From: a virus
Taxonomy: Duplodnaviria; Caudoviricetes
DNA length: 33,361 nucleotides
Reading direction: 5' to 3' (one strand)
IMG/VR virus record: IMGVR_UViG_3300033076_000766
Location: 1-33,361 of that record
The position numbers were made by a program, and so were the translations under genes. Positions 2,881 to 32,751 of this stretch are shown piece after piece. Positions within the stretch are counted from its first letter, which is position 1, and every line of letters starts with the position of its first letter. The notes under the pieces are model-generated. The model ran no database searches. It was not told the origin of the DNA and saw only the letters and a program-made list of their open reading frames with translations.

Positions 2881-2978
2881 AGATCGATGACGACGCCCTA
2901 GAGGTTGGCATGCTGATCGCGGTCAACAACGTGATCTGCTTCGCGATCGGCTTTATCGGCGCCTACCTTCTGCTGTAA
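2877..2978 (+). CDS. 33-aa hydrophobic (single-TM) peptide overlapping the integrase 3' end
   Basis: ATG overlaps the HTH stop (ATGA). MKIDDDALEVGMLIAVNNVICFAIGFIGAYLLL*. Below the ORF-track cutoff. Confidence 0.5.
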   Translation: MKIDDDALEVGMLIAVNNVICFAIGFIGAYLLL

Positions 2979-4136
2979 CCACGCCTCCCACTTGGCGACC
3001 GCCTGGCGCTTTTCGGTCAGGTACTCGTAGCGGTCATAGTGACGCGATGAGACGTCGCCCTCGGTGTGGTTCTGGAGCAGGTCGCGCTCCACCTTCGTCA
3101 GCCCTGCCGCGCCGGCCAGTGTCTTCCAGGTCCGGCGCAGGTCGCGCCCATTGAACGGCGCCAGTGCACGCTCCGCCGCATACCGCTTGAGGAACACCAG
3201 CACGGCACCGTCGGGCTGGTGCTTTCCTGCCTTCTCGCTCGGAAACAGCCAACCTTCTCGGCTCGGCTGGAGGCCGTCTAAGATTGCCGCCGCACGCCTG
3301 CAGACAGGCAGCACATGAGGCTTGCCGTTCTTCGTCTTCTCCCAGATCAGCAGGCGCTCGGCGCTGTTCCACTGGTGCGCCTTGAGCTGCAGGATTTCGC
3401 GCACGCGCTGGCCGGTGAGCATGATGAGCGCGATCGCCTCTCGCACCTTGGTGCGCCTCTGACCGAACCCACGCAGCGAGTTGAGCAGCTGCTTGTACTC
3501 CAGCTCGGACAGCCACCGATTGCCCACGCCCTCGGCCTCGGTGTCGCGTGCCACCGCCTCGATCGGGTTGGTCTTGATGCCCCAATCGCGGGGGTTCTCG
3601 ACGCGGTAATCGTGGGTGGCCTTCATGGCCCAGCGGAATGCCGCGCCGATGTACATGCGGAACTTGTCGGCCTGCACACGGGAGCCACGATCGTAGACGG
3701 GCTTGATCACCGACACGATATCGTCGGGGGTGACCTCGGCCGCCAGCTTGTGGGCGCCGATTTTCTTGGAGGCCGCAGCAAGAATTTTCTCGGCTTGCTT
3801 GACCGCTGGCTTGCCGGCCTGGCGCAGGCTGTCGAGGTAGCCGTTGAACATTTCGCCCAGGGTGGCCTCTGGCTTTGCCGCTTCCTCCTGACCAGCAGCA
3901 GGGTCGGCAAACTTCGCCCTAGCCTGCGCCAACGTCATGTCAGGGAAGGCGCCGAGCTTCTCCATCCGCTTGGCACCGAGCACGTATTTGGCCGAGTACC
4001 ACTCGGCGCGGTTGGGCTTGACTACGAGGGTCAGCCGGCCGGCTCCCTTGGGCGCTTTGTCGGTCAGGGTGATCGCGGTCTTTTCGCCCTTCTTGATCTC
4101 GCGCAGGGCGGCCCGGATGGATGCGTCGGTGAGCAT
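2898..4136 (-). CDS. int: tyrosine integrase, P4-like with N-terminal arm-binding domain
   Basis: MLTDASIR N-terminus, LGAFPDMTLAQAR, catalytic LTGQRVREI, KTKN, RDLRRT, LQNH, HYDRY. SD GAGG. Confidence 0.95.
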   Translation of the reverse strand: MLTDASIRAALREIKKGEKTAITLTDKAPKGAGRLTLVVKPNRAEWYSAKYVLGAKRMEKLGAFPDMTLAQARAKFADPAAGQEEAAKPEATLGEMFNGYLDSLRQAGKPAVKQAEKILAAASKKIGAHKLAAEVTPDDIVSVIKPVYDRGSRVQADKFRMYIGAAFRWAMKATHDYRVENPRDWGIKTNPIEAVARDTEAEGVGNRWLSELEYKQLLNSLRGFGQRRTKVREAIALIMLTGQRVREILQLKAHQWNSAERLLIWEKTKNGKPHVLPVCRRAAAILDGLQPSREGWLFPSEKAGKHQPDGAVLVFLKRYAAERALAPFNGRDLRRTWKTLAGAAGLTKVERDLLQNHTEGDVSSRHYDRYEYLTEKRQAVAKWEAWLQQKVGADKADREADHVVDRDQHANL

Positions 4137-21561: not shown

Positions 21562-22515
21562 TTACGCCACGGCGTTGGTGATCAAGTAACCAGCGCCAGC
21601 ACCTGCGATCACAGGAGCCTCAGCGCGGGTCACTGGAACGAACCAGGACTTGGCGTTGCGGTCGAAGTAGGGCTGCTCAACGATTGGGTAGCCGTTCAGG
21701 TTGTAGGTGTAACCGAAGGTCGGTGTACCCATGTCGGCCAAAGCGGCTGTCTCGGTGAAGCCCAAGACAACGTCCTTGCCCCACACATCGCTGAATGCTG
21801 TGCCGGCGTCGTTGGAGTAGATCGCGTCGCCCACGAGCACCTTTTCCACGCCGAACAAGCCGGCCAGGATATCGGCAGTCGCCACGTCGCGGCCTGTGTA
21901 CTTCATGCGGTCCACGATCACGGGGTGAGCGCGGAGCTTGGCCATCACAGCCGCACCCATGATCAACACGTTGGGACGCTTGCCGGTGGCAGCGCGGATG
22001 GCTTCCTTGGCGGTCTCAACGTTGTTGATGGGGTTGGACGTGCCGCTGTAGTCGCTCCACTGACCGGTACCGGACAAGGTGACCTTGTTGTTGGAACCGT
22101 AGTTGCCAGCAGTGCGAGCCAAGTCGGCCTGAGCTTTCTCCAGGCGCAGAGCCATGATGCTCGACACCTTCTTGATCGCCATGGCCATGTGGTCGATAGA
22201 CCAGCCGTTCGCGCCGTTCGCGCCTTCTTGGTACACCTCGATTGGCACTGCGCCTTCCAAGCTGTAGTCCACGAGCGCGAAGTTCGAGCCAGAGTAGCCG
22301 AACTGGATGCGCTTGGTGTTTTCACCAGGTGCGCGTGCGCTGTTGTACAGCATGAAGTCTTCTTTGCCGAAGGTGATGATCTTGCCAGCGCGGAGGCTGA
22401 CAGGAACCTGTGGGAACAAAGCGCCGCCGACGAAGTCGGGCTGCTTGTAACCCTGAGCAACGTTGGTCAGGACGGGGTCGATTACCCGTACTTGGGAGAG
22501 GTTCAACTGAGACAT
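21562..22515 (-). CDS. major capsid protein (HK97 fold)
   Basis: IDPVLTNVAQGY..LFPQVPV, LSGTGQWSDY..SNP, RPNVLIMG, GYLITNAV; strong SD TAAGGAG; 317 aa. Confidence 0.9.
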   Translation of the reverse strand: MSQLNLSQVRVIDPVLTNVAQGYKQPDFVGGALFPQVPVSLRAGKIITFGKEDFMLYNSARAPGENTKRIQFGYSGSNFALVDYSLEGAVPIEVYQEGANGANGWSIDHMAMAIKKVSSIMALRLEKAQADLARTAGNYGSNNKVTLSGTGQWSDYSGTSNPINNVETAKEAIRAATGKRPNVLIMGAAVMAKLRAHPVIVDRMKYTGRDVATADILAGLFGVEKVLVGDAIYSNDAGTAFSDVWGKDVVLGFTETAALADMGTPTFGYTYNLNGYPIVEQPYFDRNAKSWFVPVTRAEAPVIAGAGAGYLITNAVA

Positions 22516-22537: not shown

Positions 22538-22876
22538 TTAGTTAGGGATGATCAGCACTTCGACGATATCGCCGGCGGCCGATGCTGCGTTGAGCGCGCG
22601 ACCGATTGCGACACCAGCGGACTTGGTGACCACCTGAGTGACAGTCGAACCGACTTCGACCAGCGAGCCGGCGGTGATGGCGGCGCCAGCAACAGCCAAG
22701 GCGGTGCCGAGGACAGTCACGGGAACCAAGTCGCCAGAGGCGGCTGCCACGTTGGCGAAGCCCACGGCGTTACCAGCGGCCGTAGCTGCTGCACCGGATG
22801 CCTGGACGGGCTGATACTGAGCCAGCGCGGCGCCGGCGGTGACGCTCTTTACGAGCAGAGGGATGTTACCTTGCAT
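22538..22876 (-). CDS. capsid cement/decoration protein (DUF2190-like)
   Basis: Ala/Gly/Val-rich; AGAAITAG, GRALNAASAAGDIVEVL; SD TAAGGAG; immediately before the capsid gene. Confidence 0.85.
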   Translation of the reverse strand: MQGNIPLLVKSVTAGAALAQYQPVQASGAAATAAGNAVGFANVAAASGDLVPVTVLGTALAVAGAAITAGSLVEVGSTVTQVVTKSAGVAIGRALNAASAAGDIVEVLIIPN

Positions 22877-22888
22877 GATGAAAACTCC

Positions 22889-23329
22889 TTATTTGGAAAC
22901 GGCTTTGACGGCGGCGAGGTAGTCGGTACCGGGGTGCTTGGCCATGTAGGCTTTTGCGTCGGTGTCGAGCTTCGCTGCGGTGGCATCCACCTGGAAACCT
23001 TCGGGCACGCGCATGCCGGTCTTAGCGGCAGCGGGTTCTTCCTCGATCTCGACGGATGTTGGGACGGGCGCGGGTGCGTCGTTCTGGCGTGCGCTGGCAG
23101 CACCAGCGACGCGGCTGCGTTCAGCAGCGAGCACCTGCACGGCGGCCTCTGGGCCAGTGGTCTTGCCGTCGAAAGCCAAGGCTTCGATCAGCGCTTCGTG
23201 GCCGGGCATGGATTGCTCACGCACGGCCTGGATGCGGGCGCGTTCGGCCTCAGCGCCTTCTGCGCGCAACATAGCTGCGGCATCAGCGTTTTCGGCGACG
23301 AACTTGGCCGCGAGTTCTTTGGGGTCCAT
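22889..23329 (-). CDS. nested in-frame scaffold protein (Nu3-like)
   Basis: Internal ATG 23329 (MDPKELAAKF) preceded by AAGGAG at 6 nt spacing; AEGAEAERARI motif. Confidence 0.75.
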   Translation of the reverse strand: MDPKELAAKFVAENADAAAMLRAEGAEAERARIQAVREQSMPGHEALIEALAFDGKTTGPEAAVQVLAAERSRVAGAASARQNDAPAPVPTSVEIEEEPAAAKTGMRVPEGFQVDATAAKLDTDAKAYMAKHPGTDYLAAVKAVSK

Positions 23330-24298
23330 AGACACTCCTTGAATGGTTGGTTCAATTTCGACGTGCGGCACCGGCTCGTCGGTCAGGTTTTCATCAGCAG
23401 CAGCACCGGCTGCCAGATGATCGGCGCCAGCCGCAGCGATCTTTGCCTTGCGGCGCGATGCGAATTGGCTGGGGTTATCGGCCAGCTTGGCGACCATCGC
23501 GTCCACGGTGGCGACACCGTCCACGAGGCCGGCGTCAATCGCCTGCTGCCCGATGAAAATGCGACCGTCGGCCATGTGCTGCAGCACCTGGTCGGCGCTG
23601 ACCTTGCGGTTCTGCGCGACGGTCTCGACAAAGACGCGGTAGATTTCGTCCACCTGCGACTGGATGTAGGCCTTGCCCTCGGCGCTGAGCGGCGCGCTTT
23701 CGCTGCCCATGCGCTTGTATTTGCCGGCCGTGATTTCGGTGGTCTGCTTGGCGGCAGTGCGTGGGTCATACGCATGCGTGGCCACCACGCCGATCGAGCC
23801 GACATAGTCGGTCAAGCCGCTGATGTAGACCGCATTGGCCGCGCTGCCGAGCCAGTAGCCGGCGCTGGCCATCGTGCCCGTGCAGCAGGTGACGGTGGGC
23901 TTCTCGGCCGCCAGAGATTTGATGCTCGCGGCGAGCGCGGGGATGCCCAGCACGTTGCCGCCGGGGCTGTCCATGTCGATCACCACGGCGCGCACCATGG
24001 GGTCAGCGCGCATGCTCTCGACCTGCTGCTGCAGGAGCTGCGCAGAGGCGCCGCCAGAGACGCGGGTGAACATATTGGCCTTGTTGGAAATGACGCCGCT
24101 GATCGGCAGCACTGCCACGCCGTTGTCGCGGATTTCGTAATCCTGCTGTTCGTTGGCCAGCGGTCGGCCCAGGCGAGCTTCAATCGCCTCAATGTCGATC
24201 TTCTCGCCACGGAAATGAGACGAGTACACCGCCTGAATTTCGCGCAGCTTCTCGGGCATGATCGCCCAGGGGCTGGTCAAAACGTCAATGAGTTTCAT
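22889..24298 (-). CDS. prohead protease, S49 family (lambda gpC-like), with C-terminal scaffold region
   Basis: PWAIMP, DMDSPGG, MASAGYWLGS, VGSIGV, AGKYK, AIDAGLVDGV. Confidence 0.93.
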   Translation of the reverse strand: MKLIDVLTSPWAIMPEKLREIQAVYSSHFRGEKIDIEAIEARLGRPLANEQQDYEIRDNGVAVLPISGVISNKANMFTRVSGGASAQLLQQQVESMRADPMVRAVVIDMDSPGGNVLGIPALAASIKSLAAEKPTVTCCTGTMASAGYWLGSAANAVYISGLTDYVGSIGVVATHAYDPRTAAKQTTEITAGKYKRMGSESAPLSAEGKAYIQSQVDEIYRVFVETVAQNRKVSADQVLQHMADGRIFIGQQAIDAGLVDGVATVDAMVAKLADNPSQFASRRKAKIAAAGADHLAAGAAADENLTDEPVPHVEIEPTIQGVSMDPKELAAKFVAENADAAAMLRAEGAEAERARIQAVREQSMPGHEALIEALAFDGKTTGPEAAVQVLAAERSRVAGAASARQNDAPAPVPTSVEIEEEPAAAKTGMRVPEGFQVDATAAKLDTDAKAYMAKHPGTDYLAAVKAVSK

Positions 24299-24351: not shown

Positions 24352-24696
24352 TCAGGGGCCTACTGGAAGCACGTTGAGCAAAGCCTTTGCGACCAGCGTG
24401 TTATTGAGCGACGTCGTGAAAGTCGCGGTCACTGCGTAGCGGCGCGGGTCCTTGGTGTTGAGCGCCGTGCCACCGCTGATGCGGACCTGCACCACCTTGC
24501 CGGCGGCCACCGTGCGGCCATCGGGATAGGTCACGGCGGTGACATTCACCACTGGCGAGCCGAAGGTCAGCGCATCGGGCGATACGTTCGGCAGGCCCGC
24601 CACCGTCGGTGTGCCCGTGATGGTTTCGCCAGCCGCGAGCAATTCGCTGCAGTCGATATCGAAAAGGGCGCTTTCGCCCGGATATTTTTCAAGCAT
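24352..24696 (-). CDS. putative fibre adaptor/base protein
   Basis: Beta-rich, 114 aa. EKYPGESALFDIDCSELL..GETI and VQVRISGGT resemble the KxPxE..(F/Y)xxD..L..GETI virion adaptor family (recalled, not searched). Confidence 0.5.
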   Translation of the reverse strand: MLEKYPGESALFDIDCSELLAAGETITGTPTVAGLPNVSPDALTFGSPVVNVTAVTYPDGRTVAAGKVVQVRISGGTALNTKDPRRYAVTATFTTSLNNTLVAKALLNVLPVGP

Positions 24697-25735
24697 GGAA
24701 GGTCCTCTCTGGTGCGCTTGGCACCCACACGCGACCCAGCGCGTCGGTGGTCACGACGCGCACCGTGGCGCCCGCGACCCATCGGCGTTCGAGGTCATTT
24801 TTCTGAATGTCGGTGAAGGCTCCGCCAGACGCGGCGAAGCGGTCGGCCCCGATCTCTGTCGCTGCCATCAATCCAAGGCGCGGAGCCTTTGCGCTGGCGG
24901 CGAACGTGTCAGCGCCCTCGCTTGTGGCCATGGTACCGCGCACCGCCACCTTGCCGGCGGCCGTGGCTGTATCGGTGCCCGTTTCGCTGGCGCTGAGGGC
25001 ACCACGCACGGCGACTGTGCCCGACGCTGCCAGGGTGTCGGCGCCAGTCTCGGTGGCCGCCATGGTGCCTGTTCGGGTCGAGGCGGCCGCGCTGGTGTTG
25101 AACTCCACAGCCACAGCGCCGAACGATGTGGCCGAGGTGCTCGCCCAGGTGATGGTCGAGCCGCTGAAACCTGAATCGATCGACACCACTTCCAGGCCCG
25201 TCGTGGGTGATGTGAAGCCGGTGCCGTCGAATTGCTCGGTCCAGCCGCTGGGCTGCGTGATGCCCGCCGGCGACGACGCATTGCCGACGAAACCAATCAG
25301 CGGGTTGGATGAGCTGGCCGCAGCCCCGAGCGTGATGCTCGGCGTGCCGCCTGACGAAATGTTGTTCTGCACGCCGGACTGCACCACCGCCGATGCTCCG
25401 GCACGCGATAGACCTTGCACCGACAGCACGTCGATGAAAGCGCCCGTGGCTGGGTCGCCCGTGCAATCGAAAGTGGCGGTCTGCGACACCGCTGAGGCCA
25501 CCAGGCTGTCGGCGACAAACAGATACAGCGTGTCGTTGGACGACGCCTTGGTGGCGCTCGTGATCTTGGTGAAGGTGATGCCGGCCGAGGTGGTGAAACT
25601 GCCAGGCGCCACGCAGGACGGCGCGACGACGCAGGCCACCAACAAGTCACCGACGGCAGGCGTAAACGCACCCGTCGTGTAGCTCGTGACATTCGAGCTG
25701 TCGGCGAGCGTGACGCGCTGGACTACGGTTGCCAT
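24689..25735 (-). CDS. S/T/A-rich virion protein with globular N-domain and C-terminal repeats
   Basis: AVGDLLVACV and TQPSGWT motifs; four ~22-aa repeats near the C-terminus. Confidence 0.6.
   Translation of the reverse strand: MATVVQRVTLADSSNVTSYTTGAFTPAVGDLLVACVVAPSCVAPGSFTTSAGITFTKITSATKASSNDTLYLFVADSLVASAVSQTATFDCTGDPATGAFIDVLSVQGLSRAGASAVVQSGVQNNISSGGTPSITLGAAASSSNPLIGFVGNASSPAGITQPSGWTEQFDGTGFTSPTTGLEVVSIDSGFSGSTITWASTSATSFGAVAVEFNTSAAASTRTGTMAATETGADTLAASGTVAVRGALSASETGTDTATAAGKVAVRGTMATSEGADTFAASAKAPRLGLMAATEIGADRFAASGGAFTDIQKNDLERRWVAGATVRVVTTDALGRVWVPSAPERTFHA
24818..25080 (-). repeat. four tandem ~21-22 aa coding repeats
   Basis: TRTGTMAATETGADTLAASGTV / AVRGALSASETGTDTATAAGKV / AVRGTMATSE-GADTFAASAKA / PRLGLMAATEIGADRFAASGGA. 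Confidence 0.85.
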
Positions 25736-25759
25736 GTCGGGGCGCCTTTACCCGACGGC

Positions 25760-26131
25760 TCAGGCGTGAGTGATGCTCGCGCTGCTGATGGTGACGGTCT
25801 GGCCGGCGGTGATGCTCACGCTGTCCAAATTGATATCGGCGCCCGAGGTGCCGACGCTCAATCCCGTCACGACGTCCGTGCCGCCACTTGCCGTGCGGAT
25901 GCGCGCGGCAGCCGCTGTGCCGCTGGCATCGGCCGAGGCGTCCGACTGCGGCATGGTAAGGGTCAGCACACCACCCGACGCCGCAGGCGCCGCAGGGTTG
26001 GCCAAGGGGATGGTCGCCAGAATGGTGGCCATGCCGGCCGTGCCGATTTCCAGCACGCCGGTGCTACCGATGGCCGTGGTGACTGCGTTGAGGCGGGCGT
26101 TTTTGACTGCGGTGGTGTAGGTGACGGACAT
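25760..26131 (-). CDS. small beta-rich virion protein, putative fibre/filament subunit
   Basis: 123 aa, A/T/S/G-rich: YTTAVKNARL, ADASGTAAAARI, SVGTSGADINLDSVSITAGQTVTISS. Confidence 0.6.
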   Translation of the reverse strand: MSVTYTTAVKNARLNAVTTAIGSTGVLEIGTAGMATILATIPLANPAAPAASGGVLTLTMPQSDASADASGTAAAARIRTASGGTDVVTGLSVGTSGADINLDSVSITAGQTVTISSASITHA

Positions 26132-26150: not shown

Positions 26151-26639
26151 TCAATCGTTTCCCATTTCCTGGTCGATCAGCAGCACGCCACAGGCGTCGC
26201 CTTCGACACGCTCCAGACGGGCCAGGAGGTCGCCATATTCGCCGACCGACTTGCGCTGGATTTCCAGGAATTGCAGGAGGTGCTGCTGAGTGAGCACATC
26301 CACTTGGCCGTACCAGGTGGCGTAGTCGCTCTGTAGCGCGAATTCGGTGTCATAGGCGAGCTGCAAGGCGTCGCGCAGTGAGCCCACGGGGTCCACGGCA
26401 TCAGCCAAGGCCGGCAGGCCAGCGACACCGCCACGGTCGTTGATGTAGTCGACATGGCGCTGGTAGTGGGTCAGCTCGTCAGCGCTCTCGCTCAAAAAGA
26501 ACTTCTGCGCGCCGAAGTAGCCCAGGCGCTGCAGCTGGTTGGCCACGTGCTTGTAGAGGTGCGAGGCAAACAGCTCGGCGTGCACGGCATCGGACAGGAT
26601 GGCTTCGACTTCCGGGGTCAGTTGGTTGGGTACGGGCAT
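26151..26639 (-). CDS. ftn: ferritin (four-helix, ferroxidase centre conserved)
   Basis: E22, Y29, D54/E55, H58 and E99 match E. coli FtnA E17/Y24/E49/E50/H53/E94 with a constant +5 offset; Q128 matches Q127. Also KFF, YINDRGG and LLIDQEM (helix E). SD GGAG. Confidence 0.9.
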   Translation of the reverse strand: MPVPNQLTPEVEAILSDAVHAELFASHLYKHVANQLQRLGYFGAQKFFLSESADELTHYQRHVDYINDRGGVAGLPALADAVDPVGSLRDALQLAYDTEFALQSDYATWYGQVDVLTQQHLLQFLEIQRKSVGEYGDLLARLERVEGDACGVLLIDQEMGND

Positions 26640-26651
26640 GATCTCTCCAGG

Positions 26652-28322
26652 TCAGGTGCTGGCGCGCACGGCCTGAGCGCGGCGCAGGCCACGCAGGGCG
26701 TCGGCCTGCTCGTCGTTTTCGTTGTCGTCGTTCTGGGCTGGCGCTGGCGCGGGTGCATCAGGCAAGGCGGGCATTCCAGGCGTGCCAGGTGGAGGCGCAA
26801 CGGGCGCCTGCAGGCCGCTCTCGACGCGCTCCTCGGTGATGCGGACATTCTCGCGGTGCTTGTCGTCCCAATCTCCGCCGTCATAGGCGCTGATTTCCTC
26901 GGCCAGCGTTGTGAGGCCCATGTCCACACGGGCCTTGGCGGCTTGCACTTCCTTGAGCGGGTCGATGGCGCCGGGCCCGTCACCGCTCCACTGCGCACCG
27001 GTCCAAGCCATGCGAACAGCGGGGTCCGCAAAGAAACCAGGTGCGCTGATGCGGCCAGAGGCCACGGCGTCGGCGAGCCATTCCTCGTAGACGGGCTGGC
27101 AGAACTTCACGGCCAGCCATTCGCGGCGGATTTTGAACGTGCGCCAGGCATCGAGCAGGGCCGCGCGGGCCGCGCTGTAGCTCGACTGGAAGTGCTTGGT
27201 CAGCACCTCCTTGGGGATGTTCAGCGCCATGCCGATCTGGGTCATCACGGCATTGACGAAGGGGTCGAAATTCGGATTGGGGCGGCCCATGTCGGGCGAC
27301 TGGATTTCTTCGCCGGGCAACAGGTTGACGGCCGCGCCGGACTTGATCGTGCCGTCCCAGCGCTTGGCGGCGTCGATGTAGGACTGCTGCGCGCCGTCGT
27401 CGAAGGTGTCGGCGAAGGTGTCGGGGTCCATCTTTACGAACATGGCGAACACCGCGCTGTTCACGGCTGCATCCACCTCGGCGGTGCTGTAGCGGGTGAG
27501 CTGCTTGAGCAGTTCGATGATGGGCGCCAGTGCAGGCACGCCTCGGGTCTGACCGGGGCGCAGCTTGCGCATCAGGTGCAGCACGTTGCGGCGACCGGAC
27601 TTGCCGCGCATAGCGACGCGCGTCCACTTGAAGTCGGTCGGCGTGATGTAGCGGCCGGGGTGTCGGTTGCAGACATGAATGGCGACAGGAAAGTGCGACT
27701 TGTCGCGCTCGATGCCTGCCGTCATGTCGTCGGTGTCGGCCACCCAGCCTGGATTGCTGACACGATCGGCCTCGATGATCTGCACGGCCAGTGAGTAGGG
27801 CCAGTCGGGACGCTTGACCTGCGCCAGCACCACGAAGGCGTCGCCACTCTCGAGGTGCGTGCGGAAAGCGAGGTCCTGCATTTCGGCCCAATTCTGCTGG
27901 CCGTAGGCGTCGGCATATTCGCTCATGGCCCACAGGCAGAACTCGCGCTCGACGTTATCCTGCCATTCCTCGGCGGCCTCTGCGTCGAGGCCGAGGCGGT
28001 CGGCATCGATGCGGGAAATCAGGCGCAGGCCTGAGCCCACGACGTTGGTGACTTCGGTCTCAATCGCGCCGCCGGCAATGGCCGAATTGCGCACCAGGTC
28101 ACGCGAGCGGGCGCGCAGCTCGCGCAGGTCGCGCAGCGTGTCGGCGTCACTGTCGCCAATGCCGGGTTGGAAATACGCCAGGCGCTCGTGGTAGCCGGCG
28201 CCGCTGTAGCCGCCACCCCCTGCTGATGCGCTGATGCGGGCCTTGTAACGGTTGCCGGCGGCATTCGGGCTGAATACCGCGATGGCGCGTTCGACAAAGT
28301 TGGGCGGTGGTAATTTTTTCAT
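26652..28322 (-). CDS. portal protein, lambda gpB family
   Basis: LRARSRDLVRN, RPGQTRGVPAL, SSYSAARAALL, IDPLKEVQA. Start re-assigned to ATG 28322. Pro/Asp-rich C-terminal tail. Confidence 0.95.
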   Translation of the reverse strand: MKKLPPPNFVERAIAVFSPNAAGNRYKARISASAGGGGYSGAGYHERLAYFQPGIGDSDADTLRDLRELRARSRDLVRNSAIAGGAIETEVTNVVGSGLRLISRIDADRLGLDAEAAEEWQDNVEREFCLWAMSEYADAYGQQNWAEMQDLAFRTHLESGDAFVVLAQVKRPDWPYSLAVQIIEADRVSNPGWVADTDDMTAGIERDKSHFPVAIHVCNRHPGRYITPTDFKWTRVAMRGKSGRRNVLHLMRKLRPGQTRGVPALAPIIELLKQLTRYSTAEVDAAVNSAVFAMFVKMDPDTFADTFDDGAQQSYIDAAKRWDGTIKSGAAVNLLPGEEIQSPDMGRPNPNFDPFVNAVMTQIGMALNIPKEVLTKHFQSSYSAARAALLDAWRTFKIRREWLAVKFCQPVYEEWLADAVASGRISAPGFFADPAVRMAWTGAQWSGDGPGAIDPLKEVQAAKARVDMGLTTLAEEISAYDGGDWDDKHRENVRITEERVESGLQAPVAPPPGTPGMPALPDAPAPAPAQNDDNENDEQADALRGLRRAQAVRAST

Positions 28323-28324
28323 GC

Positions 28325-28552
28325 TCAAAAGTTCGGACGGGGCACGATGGCGGCACTGCGGCCGGCAGCTCGGGCGCTCAGGCGCTTGACGCGCTGGTCC
28401 CACACGTTGATGCCCGCCTGAATTTCGGCGAGGTTGGCTCGCTGGAGCATGCGACCTTCAATTTCGTACCGTTGACCGGACAAAACGGCAGTCTCGGCCG
28501 CCAGATAGGCTTCCAGTTTTGCTTGTGCGATTGCGAGGGTAATTCCAGCCAT
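28325..28552 (-). CDS. head completion/adaptor protein (gpW-like)
   Basis: AYLAAETAVLSGQRYEIEGRMLQRANLAEI; between TerL and portal. Confidence 0.85.
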   Translation of the reverse strand: MAGITLAIAQAKLEAYLAAETAVLSGQRYEIEGRMLQRANLAEIQAGINVWDQRVKRLSARAAGRSAAIVPRPNF

Positions 28553-28560
28553 TTGGGCCC

Positions 28561-28857
28561 CTATTCTGAACTGTTCGGCGTCTCAGCGCCCGGCTTCTTG
28601 CGATTTTTGCGACCCAGCATTCGGTAAATCGTTGCCCGAGACAGTCCGACCTCGGCCGCAATCGTGGCCACGGGCTTTCTCTGCCTCAATCCGGCGTCAA
28701 TCTGGTCGATTGTGACCGGTGCACGCGGCTGGATGCGCATCGCAGTGCCACCAAACTCACGCCTGATGGCCTGATCGGCACGCGAAAGCGTGACGGCGTC
28801 GACCTTGGCGACTGTTCCGACGATTTCGAGGATTTGCTGCACTGCATCTGGCTTCAT
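28561..28857 (-). CDS. HTH DNA-binding protein (Mor-like candidate late regulator)
   Basis: IRREFGGT followed by VATIAAEVGLSRATIYRML. ATG 28857 is coupled to the TerL stop (ATGA). Confidence 0.7.
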   Translation of the reverse strand: MKPDAVQQILEIVGTVAKVDAVTLSRADQAIRREFGGTAMRIQPRAPVTIDQIDAGLRQRKPVATIAAEVGLSRATIYRMLGRKNRKKPGAETPNSSE

Positions 28858-30818
28858 GCTGACCGCCCCCACCCGCTTAGGTTGACCCGACCGGCGACAA
28901 CCGATGCCGGTGTCACCTCGCTTGCTGTATCTCCGTCAGATTTTACGGTATTTGCGGCGCCCGTAACTAGCCTGTGAGCCATTTGCATGTAAAACGTTGC
29001 CCGATTGTGTCGGGTTTTCACGTATTCCAGGGCTGCCAGCGCCAGAACTTCGCAGTCCAAGTCTTCGTTGTATTCGCTGTCCTTCTTGACCCAGACCCGC
29101 TTGGGGAAACCATTGACCAGCTTGACCACCTGGCGCTCGCTGGTGAGCTGTTTCCAGTAGTCGGCATCGAGGCCGAGCGGCCAGTGCATCACGCCGGCAC
29201 CCGTCGGGGCGTCCATGCGCAGCCGCGCGTAAATCAGCGCCTTGCCGGTGTCGCTGCCGACCGGCCACAGGTCCACGCCGCGCTTGATCTTCTGCTGGCG
29301 GATGTTGATGTCTTGCTTGGTCGGCTTACCGAGCAGCGCTTTGCCGGGGATGCTCTGGCCCTTGGTGGCCAGCACGTGGCGGGCGCGGTTGCTGCGCGCG
29401 AAGGCGTAGACCAAATGCGTGGTTTCGCCGTCGCCCGAATCGATCGCGGCCGCATAGGGCCGGAGCATGCCGCCACCGGCCACGGGGTATTCCTGGTTGA
29501 TGGCTTCGAGCACCTGGCGCCACAGCTCGGGCTGGGTCTGGTCGCCGTGAATGATCTTGCGGTCTACCAGCCAGCTCTCGTCCCCCTCGCCCCAGGCGCG
29601 AATGATGATCTGCGCGTAGCCACCTGCTCGGCGCTGCAAGTCGATGCCGGCCGTGAGCACCACGCCGCCGGCGGGCACCTCGCCCAGGCTGTAGCCACCG
29701 GCGCGGCTCTGCAGGCCGTCTGAATCGAGGCGGACCGTGTTCTGGTCCTCCCAGGTCTCGGCCAGCACGGTGTTGACGAACACTTTGAGTTGCGCGGGGT
29801 CGCCGGCGCAGGCCTCGAACTCCTGCAGGACCTCGGCCCATGATTTCCAGCCCAGCGGCGAGTAGAGCGAGGACAGGTGATAGCCGCGCGTCTTGCCGTC
29901 GCCAGTTGCGGTGGGCAGCCACTCGCCACCGAGCAGCATCTTGGTCTTGTGGTGCTCCTCGATGATGGCGCCGCAGTCGTCGCCGGCGCACTTGTAGCCG
30001 GCCTGGGTCTTGCCCTCATCCATCCAGATCAGGCGGTATTCGCGCGCCCTGGGGTCGTTCTGTACATCGTCGGAGTAGCCGCGCCAGCGCAGCCACTGGC
30101 GGTGGCCGCAATGGGGGCAGGACACAAAAAACCGGCGCTTGTCGCTGCGCTCAAATTCCTTCTCGATGCGGCTAACGTCCTTGACCGTGGGCGTGCTCGT
30201 GATGAGCACCTTGCGGCGACGGCCGAAGGTGGTGGTCCGCTTGATGGCCAGCGATACGGGGTCGCCTTCGTCATCGACGTCGAGCGGATAGGCGTCGACC
30301 TCATCGAGGAACAGGTAGCGCGCTGGCATCGAGCGCAGGCCGCTGGCGCTGTTGGCACCGGCGAGCACCAGGACGCCGCCGGGGAATTCCTTGCTCAGCA
30401 GCGTGTTGCCGCTGTCGCGGCTGCGGGCCTGCTGGAAGCGGTCACGCAGCGCCGGCGTCTGGTCGATCATGTCGGACAGGCGCTGCTTGCTGAGACGCTT
30501 GGCCATGTCCACGGTGGGCTGCACGGCCATCATGGGGCCCGGCGCGTGATGCGCGACGTAGCCAATCCAGTTGTTGCCGGTTTCGGTCTTACTGGTCTGC
30601 GCGCCCCACATCAGCACCACCACCTCGGTGGGGTCCGACACCGACAGGCTGTCCATGGGCTCGCGCGCATACGGGGCGCGGTCGGTGCGCCAGTCGCCAG
30701 GCTCGGCCGAGGACTTGCTGCCGAGCTTTCTGTGCTGGTCGGCCCACTGGCTGACGGTCAGGCGCGGGTCAGGGGTCCAGCCATCGGACCACCCTGCGAC
30801 AAAGGCATCCCGTTTCAT
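28854..30818 (-). CDS. terL: terminase large subunit, lambda gpA family
   Basis: TVSQWAD, GAQTSKTE, FLDEVD (Walker B), STPT, CPHC, SSLYSP, AGIDLQ, IDSG. Start ATG 30818 (ATGA with TerS). Confidence 0.97.
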   Translation of the reverse strand: MKRDAFVAGWSDGWTPDPRLTVSQWADQHRKLGSKSSAEPGDWRTDRAPYAREPMDSLSVSDPTEVVVLMWGAQTSKTETGNNWIGYVAHHAPGPMMAVQPTVDMAKRLSKQRLSDMIDQTPALRDRFQQARSRDSGNTLLSKEFPGGVLVLAGANSASGLRSMPARYLFLDEVDAYPLDVDDEGDPVSLAIKRTTTFGRRRKVLITSTPTVKDVSRIEKEFERSDKRRFFVSCPHCGHRQWLRWRGYSDDVQNDPRAREYRLIWMDEGKTQAGYKCAGDDCGAIIEEHHKTKMLLGGEWLPTATGDGKTRGYHLSSLYSPLGWKSWAEVLQEFEACAGDPAQLKVFVNTVLAETWEDQNTVRLDSDGLQSRAGGYSLGEVPAGGVVLTAGIDLQRRAGGYAQIIIRAWGEGDESWLVDRKIIHGDQTQPELWRQVLEAINQEYPVAGGGMLRPYAAAIDSGDGETTHLVYAFARSNRARHVLATKGQSIPGKALLGKPTKQDINIRQQKIKRGVDLWPVGSDTGKALIYARLRMDAPTGAGVMHWPLGLDADYWKQLTSERQVVKLVNGFPKRVWVKKDSEYNEDLDCEVLALAALEYVKTRHNRATFYMQMAHRLVTGAANTVKSDGDTASEVTPASVVAGRVNLSGWGRSA

Positions 30819-31405
30819 GCGGCCTGGGCGTCCTGCGCGATGCGCAGGCACGTGCGTTCAATGTCCTCGATGAGCAGGCGGTGCACCTCCTGCACATCGG
30901 TGCTGCTGGCCAGGATGGGCGCCAGGCGGTCGGGCATCGTCAGCAGCGCATCACGCGCGCTGCGGGCCATCCTGAATGCGCGCGCCTTGACCTGGTCGGC
31001 CTCGATGAGCTTGCCCACCTTCTGCTCGTATTCGAGCTTGGCCAGGCGAGCCTGGTACACCTCGCGCACCGCACGGCTGGTGGCCAGCGACGGAGCAGCG
31101 CCAGCCACACTGGCCTCGTTCTCGGCCTCATCCGATGTGGTGCTGAGCCTCACCTCTGGCGGCGCGTCGTCGGTGTAGCCCTTGCGGCGCTCGCTGCCCT
31201 GGCTGCCCACGTGCGTGCGCCGGCCGGCGTCGGTGTTGCTCATCCATTCGTCGCGCACTTTTGGCCAGGCCATCAGCGGGCGGTCGTTCTTCGGGTGACG
31301 CGACGCGATGCTGACGCGCCCCGCCTTGATCGCCTTGTGCACGGCTGTGTCCGAGACGCCCAGGCGGCGGGCGGCTTCTCGGACGGCAATCAGCTCCTGC
31401 GTCAT
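30815..31405 (-). CDS. terS: terminase small subunit (Nu1-like)
   Basis: N-terminal HTH (REAARRLGVSDTAVHKAIKAGR), ARLAKLEYEQKVGKLI, RDALLTMPDRLAP. Confidence 0.88.
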   Translation of the reverse strand: MTQELIAVREAARRLGVSDTAVHKAIKAGRVSIASRHPKNDRPLMAWPKVRDEWMSNTDAGRRTHVGSQGSERRKGYTDDAPPEVRLSTTSDEAENEASVAGAAPSLATSRAVREVYQARLAKLEYEQKVGKLIEADQVKARAFRMARSARDALLTMPDRLAPILASSTDVQEVHRLLIEDIERTCLRIAQDAQAA

Positions 31406-32751
31406 GCCGTCCGTTGGGCGGCGAACGTGTCGTCATTCGCTGCCGTCAAGCGCTGGGCGCTCATGGTTTCAAACGTGCGGCCGTTGCTCTCCATCGTCGC
31501 GGCCTTGCCGGTGTAGTCCTGCCACCGGCGCACGATCACATCGACGTAGGTTGGCTCCAGCTCCATCACCCGAGCCGCGCGGCGGTTCTTCTCGGCCGCG
31601 ATCAGCGTGGACCCGCTGCCACCGAACAGGTCGAGCACTACCTGGCGCTCGCGGCTGCTGTTCAGGATGGCCGCCTCGCACAGCGCGACGGGCTTCATGG
31701 TGGGGTGCAAATCGTTGACCGCCGTGCGCGCGATTTCCCACACGCTGGGCACGGCCACCTCGACCACATCGACGGCGCCCTTGGGCCCATAGAAAACGTG
31801 GTCATGCGACCAGCCGTAGAGGACCGGCTCATAGTCCGAGCGCCAGCCAAAGATGATGGGCTCGTAGATCGACTTGTAGTCGCTGTTGGACAGGTTGAGG
31901 TGGTTCTTTTTCCACACGATCAGGTTGCGCCAGCGCAGGCCGGCGGCGGTGAGCGCGGCCATCATGCGATCGATGCCGAGCCGGTGAAAACAGATATACC
32001 AGGCGCCCTGGCAGTGCTCGGCCACGGCCGACGCGATCTCGCGCAGGAAGGCGTCGCCTTCCGAGCGGCCCAGGTTGTCGTTCAGGATGGGCCGGTGGCG
32101 GCCGTTGGCGTTGCCCTCGCCATCGATGGCGCCCTGGTAGTTCATGAGATACGGCGGGTCGGTGAACACCATGTCCGCCTGGTTGCCCTGCATGAGCGCG
32201 GCCAGGTGGCCGGCATCGGTGCTGCTGCCGCACATCACGCGATGGCCACCCAGCAGCCAGACGTCGCCCAGGCGCGACACCGCCACGACGGGCACCGCCG
32301 GCACGGCGTCGGGGTCCGTCTGGGGCTCGGGCCCGCAGTCGATCGGCGCCAGCAGGTCGGCCAGCTCGTCATCGCTGAAACCGGTGAGCGCCAGGTCGAA
32401 GCCCTCGGCCTCCAAGGCGCTCAGCTCCTCAGCCAGCAGCTCGTCATCCCACCCGGCGTCGAGCGCCAGGCGGTTGTCGGCCAGGATGTAGGCGCGGCGC
32501 TGGGCATCGGTCAGGTGGTCGAGGACGATCACCGGCACTTCGGTGAGGCCAAGCTGCTTGGCTGCCTCCAATCGACCATGGCCGGCCACGATGCTGTCGC
32601 CGCTGGCCACCAGGATGGGCTGAGTAAATCCAAACTCCGCCATGGAGGCGGCAATCTTGGCTATCTGCTCGGGGCTGTGGGTGCGGGCGTTGCGCTCATA
32701 GGGCCGCAAACGTTCAACCGGCCACAACTCAATGCGTGATGCGAGGTTCAT
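31402..32751 (-). CDS. ParB-like N-domain fused to N6/N4 DNA methyltransferase
   Basis: PYERNARTHS..FGFTQPI..AGHGRL..ADNRL (ParB-like); FTDPPY, HPTMKP, DLFGGSGSTLIA (beta-class MTase). Confidence 0.95.
   Translation of the reverse strand: MNLASRIELWPVERLRPYERNARTHSPEQIAKIAASMAEFGFTQPILVASGDSIVAGHGRLEAAKQLGLTEVPVIVLDHLTDAQRRAYILADNRLALDAGWDDELLAEELSALEAEGFDLALTGFSDDELADLLAPIDCGPEPQTDPDAVPAVPVVAVSRLGDVWLLGGHRVMCGSSTDAGHLAALMQGNQADMVFTDPPYLMNYQGAIDGEGNANGRHRPILNDNLGRSEGDAFLREIASAVAEHCQGAWYICFHRLGIDRMMAALTAAGLRWRNLIVWKKNHLNLSNSDYKSIYEPIIFGWRSDYEPVLYGWSHDHVFYGPKGAVDVVEVAVPSVWEIARTAVNDLHPTMKPVALCEAAILNSSRERQVVLDLFGGSGSTLIAAEKNRRAARVMELEPTYVDVIVRRWQDYTGKAATMESNGRTFETMSAQRLTAANDDTFAAQRTA

Follow-up and report, generated by a model that had tools for sequence, protein, structure and literature searches.

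Proteins of the ferritin superfamily have been reported from several tailed phages. Dps is encoded in Gratiaviridae and in a Lactobacillus phage (PMC8008677), particle proteomics has detected ferritin-fold proteins in phage G (gp346; PMC12484599) and in Vi01-like phages (gp217; PMC10892097), and a myxophage ferritin is in print (bioRxiv 10.64898/2026.09.14.751636). A study whose main text has no mention of ferritin describes polyvalent and MuF proteins as late and packaged (Iyer et al. 2017, PMC5512222), and a terminal disulfide links ejection proteins of cyanopodophage A4 (PMC12002296). In the accessible part of a preprint on encapsulins, ferritin is named only as encapsulin cargo (10.1101/2025.06.18.659913).

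The ferritin gene considered here lies in 33,361 nucleotides of viral DNA, a stretch referred to below as the window. Sequence comparisons indicate a real, selected ferritin that has lost site C; its family is large, phage-borne and strongly linked to genes for the portal and for head-internal proteins. A literature search of main texts, few of them from subscription journals, turned up no account of the family, although supplements could list such genes.

A ferritin gene behind the portal gene

By its gene content, the window is a fragment of a lambda-like temperate siphophage, 75% complete according to CheckV. Its minus strand carries every one of these genes, which comprise an integrase, lysis genes, a lambda-type tail module, head genes and terminase genes, and the best cultured match of its portal reaches 43% identity. 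A fusion of ParB-N with a DNA methyltransferase (31402-32751) directly precedes the terminase small subunit gene, a small HTH gene that is Mor/late-activator-like (28561-28872) stands between terminase and head-tail adaptor, and a tyrosine integrase gene (2898-4136), on the same strand as the late genes, is found between the lysis genes and a RecE/RecT-like pair. The features around the ferritin gene are listed in Table 1.

Table 1. Late head genes and sequence features surrounding the ferritin gene of the window
Feature	Position	Strand	Remarks
Lambda-family portal, 557 aa from ATG	26652..28325	minus	Pfam PF05136, E 6e-96; phrog_21
Linker from portal body to tail motif	26691..26800	minus	Pro-rich and acidic, variable
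Basic helix motif GLRRAQAVRA at portal C-terminus	26661..26690	minus	Candidate docking peptide, co-occurring with ferritin
Shine-Dalgarno-like GGAG	26645..26648	minus	5 nt 5' of ferritin ATG, just past portal stop
Ferritin, 162 aa	26151..26639	minus	Calculated pI 4.5; Pfam Ferritin, E 8e-15
Variable three-gene cassette sharing the ferritin's slot	24352..26131	minus	123 aa (phrog_3758 virion protein), 348 aa, 114 aa (Gp77-like)
S49 head maturation protease/scaffold	22889..24298	minus	Closes the slot
Cement gene	22538-22876	minus	After protease/scaffold
Major capsid gene	21562-22515	minus	After protease/scaffold

The local description given by the initial annotation holds throughout. The portal stop (26652-26654) is 12 nt ahead of the ferritin ATG, with a ribosome-binding site for the ferritin in the gap, and the similar codon style it reported is seen in a GC3 of 0.80, against 0.77-0.85 in 11 other window genes. 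It had seen no flanking promoter or terminator, and none emerged: a search for sigma-70-like promoters between 22000 and 29500 found nothing, and seven terminator-like matches (6.1 expected by chance) include none between portal and ferritin genes or directly past the ferritin on the minus strand.

The AlphaFold model of the ferritin (pLDDT 96.7) has helices at 9-39, 42-68, 88-110 and 115-145 and a short helix E at 149-159, and the chain stops three residues later. It superposes on TmFtn and FtnA with a TM-score of 0.93 and an rmsd of 1.0. A four-helix bundle, a long BC loop and a C-terminal helix E fit a non-haem 24-mer ferritin (Ftn), and on the question of 24-mer versus 12-mer put by the initial annotation this fold points to a putative 24-mer. 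The protein also matches phrog_16594 (unknown function) and solved ferritins; its score against the NCBIfam FtnA model (PRK10304) is 31.6 bits, below the cut-off of 178.

The ferroxidase residues named at first reading, E22, Y29, E55, H58, E99 and Q128, are all present and align with E17, Y24, E50, H53, E94 and Q127 of E. coli FtnA. They provide the intra-subunit di-iron A/B center (Glu, Tyr, Glu, His, Glu, Gln) of the Ftn class and are unchanged in all of the best 120 of 1,157 homolog clusters. What had been missed is the loss of FtnA site C, with E49 replaced by D54, E126 by I127 and E130 by S131; position 131 is Ser or Ala in each of the same 120 homologs. Animal H-type ferritin chains likewise lack site C ligands. 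Compared with the seven other copies that follow a lambda-type portal, dN/dS is 0.15-0.45 by simple counting, indicating that the ferritin is under purifying selection.

Other class assignments fail. A Dps mini-ferritin is ruled out by helix E, and every listed PDB match is a ferritin. Bacterioferritin, whose haem-binding Met lies in helix B, is ruled out as well, since Bfr is absent from the listed matches and Met occurs only at positions 1 and 159. Encapsulin cargo is excluded by the lack of a terminal extension and by a shell gene that encodes a phage major head protein alongside terminase, portal and tail genes. The encapsulin analogy drawn earlier is thus loose: a predicted iron-oxidizing protein is indeed encoded beside HK97-fold shell genes, but it has no extension able to serve as a cargo-loading peptide. 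Neither a ferritin with an added terminus nor a longer fused form turned up among 8,000 candidates, which is weak evidence. Two further proposals were rejected: a Cys near the ferritin C-terminus is not essential, as many copies have lost it, and read-through fusion with the upstream gene is contradicted by intergenic gaps of -10 to +18 nt in all frames.

Genomic settings of the ferritin family

The window ferritin matches 1,157 homolog clusters. Scans with sequence patterns gave 118, 188 and 178 confirmed stretches from IMG/VR and 125 from metagenomes, with the best 80 of each taken. The loci surveyed are the best 80 of 118, 125 and 188 matches, ordered by similarity to the query; the additional IMG/VR scan with the close clade, of whose 178 matches the best 80 were taken, added no further locus with a lambda portal. 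In 185,579 genomes only five contigs, of 4-18 kb and all from MAGs, carry the family, and 50,697 GenBank phage records gave no match. Within these collections the family is therefore phage-borne and uncultured. One MAG contig (L172:6010-8285) holds a broken cassette consisting of a Sir2-like gene, a 385-aa protein with a C-terminal tag and a ferritin cut at 94 aa.

The 173 loci collapse to 67 clusters at 90% identity, and 15 added later bring the distinct loci to 82. In 80 of these the ferritin gene adjoins a portal gene, a MuF gene or putative head-internal (ejection/polyvalent) genes, so the survey of its position relative to the portal, suggested by the initial annotation, reveals a non-random placement. 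The commonest setting, in 59 clusters, is between the two halves of a split giant gene with Cys-tipped tags. Eight clusters have the ferritin after a lambda-type portal, as in the window. In four more it follows a portal of another family, which is phrog_12082 in two of them (one having a 100-aa gene in the gap), phrog_6547 in the third and phrog_113 in the fourth. Another eight have it after MuF in a Mu-like order, two of them with an intervening gene of about 50 aa; five of these MuF settings were checked by PHROG and three by likeness. One cluster places it between putative ejection genes, and two, L015 and L170 (a broken ferritin), are unassigned.

A quick ferritin tree of 80 rows (L170 and L172 omitted as short) needs eight changes of setting, and its starred branches force at least three changes for the giant setting, four for MuF and two for other portals. 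The eight lambda-portal ferritins form one group (SH-aLRT 89) among giant-type copies and may represent a single capture. Because the root is a midpoint root only, the direction of such moves is no more than suggested.

Some loci have additional genes near the ferritin. In eight, including L006 (4428-5069), the downstream giant is directly adjoined at its end by an oppositely oriented phrog_3704 "ferredoxin" gene. In L081 (5307-5798) the ferritin and the downstream giant are separated by an inserted HNH endonuclease gene, an arrangement known from fractured genes that harbor a free-standing endonuclease. L016 (1894-4032), L091 (5409-5711) and L001 have a second cement-like gene after the ferritin, in L016 fused to a 712-aa protein; the usual cement gene still precedes the capsid gene.

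Among lambda-like phages, a portal-based search recovered the ferritin in 3 of 80 loci (L001, L002 and L178); a few others of the 80 (L173, L186 and L228) end too soon past the portal to judge its presence. Whole-record searches, backed by a positive control, found it encoded in none of 21 records, five of them at least 90% complete and four of those five close portal relatives. The gene is evidently optional in lambda-like phages and dispensable for head assembly, because it is absent from complete close relatives. The view that it is an integral gene rather than a moron is not supported; what is supported is that the ferritin is real, under selection, part of the late head operon and placed non-randomly in relatives.

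The neighbors vary as well. In L088 and L112 the ferritin stands alone between portal and protease, and in L089, L016 and L017 it is accompanied by genes other than those of the window cassette. L180 has an L089-type cassette without ferritin, and L174, with a portal 80% identical, has a different cassette in the slot and lacks both ferritin and tail motif. The slot is therefore an insertion site, and the link to adjacent appendage genes put forward by the initial annotation does not stand.

Cys-tipped tags and the portal tail helix

The giants that flank the ferritin carry ART-PolyVal, LPD38, PBECR and SLT domains, and one of the two corresponds to the N-part, the other to the C-part, of a single giant PHROG family. 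A conserved tag of four helices with Cys at its tip closes the upstream giant in 52 of 66 loci, the downstream giant begins with a Cys-tipped tag in 50, and 46 have both. Upstream giants longer than 800 aa all have the terminal Cys (39/39), with four internal Cys in 72,928 residues; homologs of the tag are C-terminal with a terminal Cys in 93 of 93 cases, and the Cys of the N-terminal tag is unchanged in 48 of 48. Giants of L018, L052, L118, L008 and about 55 other loci are nearly free of Cys apart from one at each facing end. All 38 matches to the tag pattern, mostly on contigs already known from the ferritin search, have a stop codon and then the ferritin. None of the 93 tag-bearing proteins contains a ferritin or N-tag domain.

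The tags have no Pfam or PDB match. Interpretation as a split intein was rejected, as the model of the C-terminal tag is all-helical and no Pfam family scores above cut-off. A helix-hairpin-helix assignment was also set aside and serves as a lead only, with ESM feature matches of just 0.77-0.83 and no Foldseek match at E 0.001.

A new finding concerns the eight lambda-type portals followed by the ferritin: each closes with a linker, either acidic or rich in Pro/Gly, and then an Arg/Ala-rich helix. This basic helix resembles a helix of the giants' tag. GLRRAQA is found in five of the eight, and looser versions in L001, L017 and L112. Read by eye, none of 31 ferritin-less portals with a closed end has an intact tail helix, and in L180, which has no ferritin, the tail is decayed. 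When a profile was made from nothing but the second helix of the giants' tag, the window portal tail came first of 570 windows, and the profile separates the eight linked from the 31 ferritin-less tails (Mann-Whitney p 1.6e-4, kin not being independent). The linked portals span three portal lineages, and their label requires three changes on a 39-row portal tree (L017 omitted as too short). The tail motif is kept at the protein level, its codons in five copies showing 3-7 synonymous versus 1-3 replacement changes, of 12.

Other observations temper the resemblance. An HMM of the whole tag gives only negative bit scores on portal tails, a shuffle test reaches p <0.05 for four of the eight linked tails, and one ferritin-less tail, that of L247, scores 0.2, level with some linked tails. 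The strict motif pattern has 17 matches in IMG/VR: one ferritin-linked tail, eight N-termini of distant lambda portals and eight elsewhere. None of the eight records of distant portals with an N-terminal motif encodes ferritin, and the motif is consequently not ferritin-specific. These portals, in L369-L372, L376, L378, L379 and L381, share a conserved basic helix at their start that differs little from the window portal tail. In L001 and L091 the N-terminal helix of the portal looks degenerate and the tail is present. Inspection by eye of the ends of MuF proteins and other portals revealed no similar helix. The likeness to the tag and the N-terminal matches together leave two candidate origins for the tail, the tag itself or a repeat of the helix with which the portal starts; portal tail and ferritin gene are adjacent DNA, able to travel together. 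The crown of the lambda portal, gpB, lies at the C-terminal end, where the structure does not resolve the final 20 residues (PMC10721106).

Possible roles and relation to known systems

The best explanation, held tentatively, is that the ferritin is a late-made ferroxidase that serves as an optional iron trap, docked at the portal vertex or loaded there. Its subunits would form a 24-mer cage, made late and in amounts similar to the portal. The acidic cage would be caught by the basic helix ending the flexible portal tail, on the crown side, which faces the head interior; in other phages a similar helix in the C-terminal tag of the giants would catch it. Once inside the head, the ferritin would oxidize and store Fe(II), and this could lessen Fenton damage to DNA being packaged or stored. 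Ferroxidase activity is predicted because the ligands are invariant, packaging is proposed because placement beside portal and head-internal genes recurs, and docking is proposed because of the portal tail helix. The ferritin-fold proteins seen in particle proteomics of phage G and Vi01-like phages are precedents, and in the viral structure library BFVD several uncultured-phage entries named "Prohead protease" or long Dps match the ferritin fold weakly (about 150 columns, E 0.05-0.1), hinting at Dps-protease fusions. Virion association is plausible.

A serious competitor, though a somewhat less probable one, is that the protein never enters the particle. It would then be a cytoplasmic iron sink, a late-made passenger in a permissive slot that lowers free Fe(II) during packaging, and the portal tail would be a hitchhiker or a copy of the N-terminal basic helix. 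The optional nature of the gene, the unrelated cassettes accepted by the slot in L174, L180 and L089, the motif at N-termini of portals without ferritin, and the persistence of the tail in L001 and L091 beside a degenerate-looking N-terminal helix all agree with such a passenger, as does, weakly, the lack of any ferritin extension or fusion. It leaves unexplained why, in unrelated head modules, the gene lies next to portal or head-internal genes (80 of 82 loci) when any site in a late operon, or one downstream of a highly expressed gene, would serve, and why it follows every tag-pattern match, mostly on contigs from the ferritin search.

Docking at the portal vertex could also be one instance of a more general design, which we consider rather unlikely in its full form: a widespread family of uncultured phages would install a cage of ferritin at the portal vertex inside the head, held by a short basic helix that has been grafted onto whichever internal protein is available, the portal tail here and a split ejection giant elsewhere. 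Such a particle would be a genuine virion enclosing an encapsulin-like iron compartment, and the loading peptide would belong to the partner and not to the cargo.

It is improbable that the ferritin acts as an oxidase helping to staple the split giants, its iron center supplying oxidizing equivalents for a disulfide between the terminal Cys residues and the window copy being a cassette leftover. The almost exclusive restriction of Cys to the facing ends, constant in the long upstream giants, the tag homologs and the N-terminal tags, invites this idea, as does the gp27-gp26 disulfide of phage A4 (PMC12002296). Against it, the main text of the A4 paper nowhere mentions ferritin, the window portal tail has no Cys while its ferritin is under purifying selection, and the tags are absent from the MuF and other portal settings.

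A ferritin cage is about 12 nm across and a portal channel a few nm, and a cage too large for the channel would need unfolding and then reassembly from few copies. That the ferritin is an early effector, packaged together with polyvalent or MuF proteins and injected with them to bind iron in the host as infection begins, is on this account very improbable, even with neighbors from families described as packaged and injected (PMC5512222). Equally doubtful is the second idea of the initial annotation, an outer iron-displaying appendage built with the three neighboring structural genes, akin to the "Ferrojan horse" hypothesis: one neighbor is indeed a phrog_3758 "virion structural protein" and such a role was proposed for a ferritin-like gene of Vi01-like phages, but these neighbors are absent or different beside every other lambda-portal ferritin, and the Vi01-like phage study reports that, in the host it tested, there was no dependence on the pathway (PMC10892097).

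If the ferritin is packaged, phage particles would carry an active iron-handling enzyme. Such an enzyme would matter for virion resistance to oxidative damage of DNA, for the iron that viruses contribute to aquatic systems and for how HK97-fold capsids relate to encapsulins. A docking role of the portal tail, if real, would provide a means of loading cargo into heads. If the protein is instead cytoplasmic, it still represents a large undescribed phage ferritin family and warns against reading such genes as randomly placed auxiliary genes.

The closest structural relatives are the non-haem 24-mer ferritins of T. maritima (1VLG/6TXJ), E. coli (FtnA, 1EUM), Synechococcus (SynFtn) and invertebrates, which share the bundle and helix E (TM 0.88-0.94), the A/B ferroxidase ligands and a C-terminal IDxE motif with the window ferritin. 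The latter differs in being phage-borne and coupled to head genes, at only 18-26% identity. The published phage Dps and ferritin-like proteins are likewise encoded in tailed phages, with proposed roles in oxidative stress, but they are Dps-like, have remote folds or are listed as auxiliary genes, and in the passages covered there is neither a docking tail nor a family of maxi-ferritins associated with portal, MuF or ejection genes. Polyvalent and MuF fusions have the same domains as the commonest neighbors of the ferritin (PMC5512222), whereas here the giant is split around the ferritin and has Cys-tipped ends. Family 1 encapsulins with ferritin-like cargo also combine an iron-oxidizing protein with an adjacent HK97-fold shell gene set. 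In the present case, the capsid of a real virion takes the place of the shell, the ferritin subunit has all five helices and lacks a cargo-loading extension, and any tag would sit on the partner, the portal, which is the reverse of encapsulin cargo.
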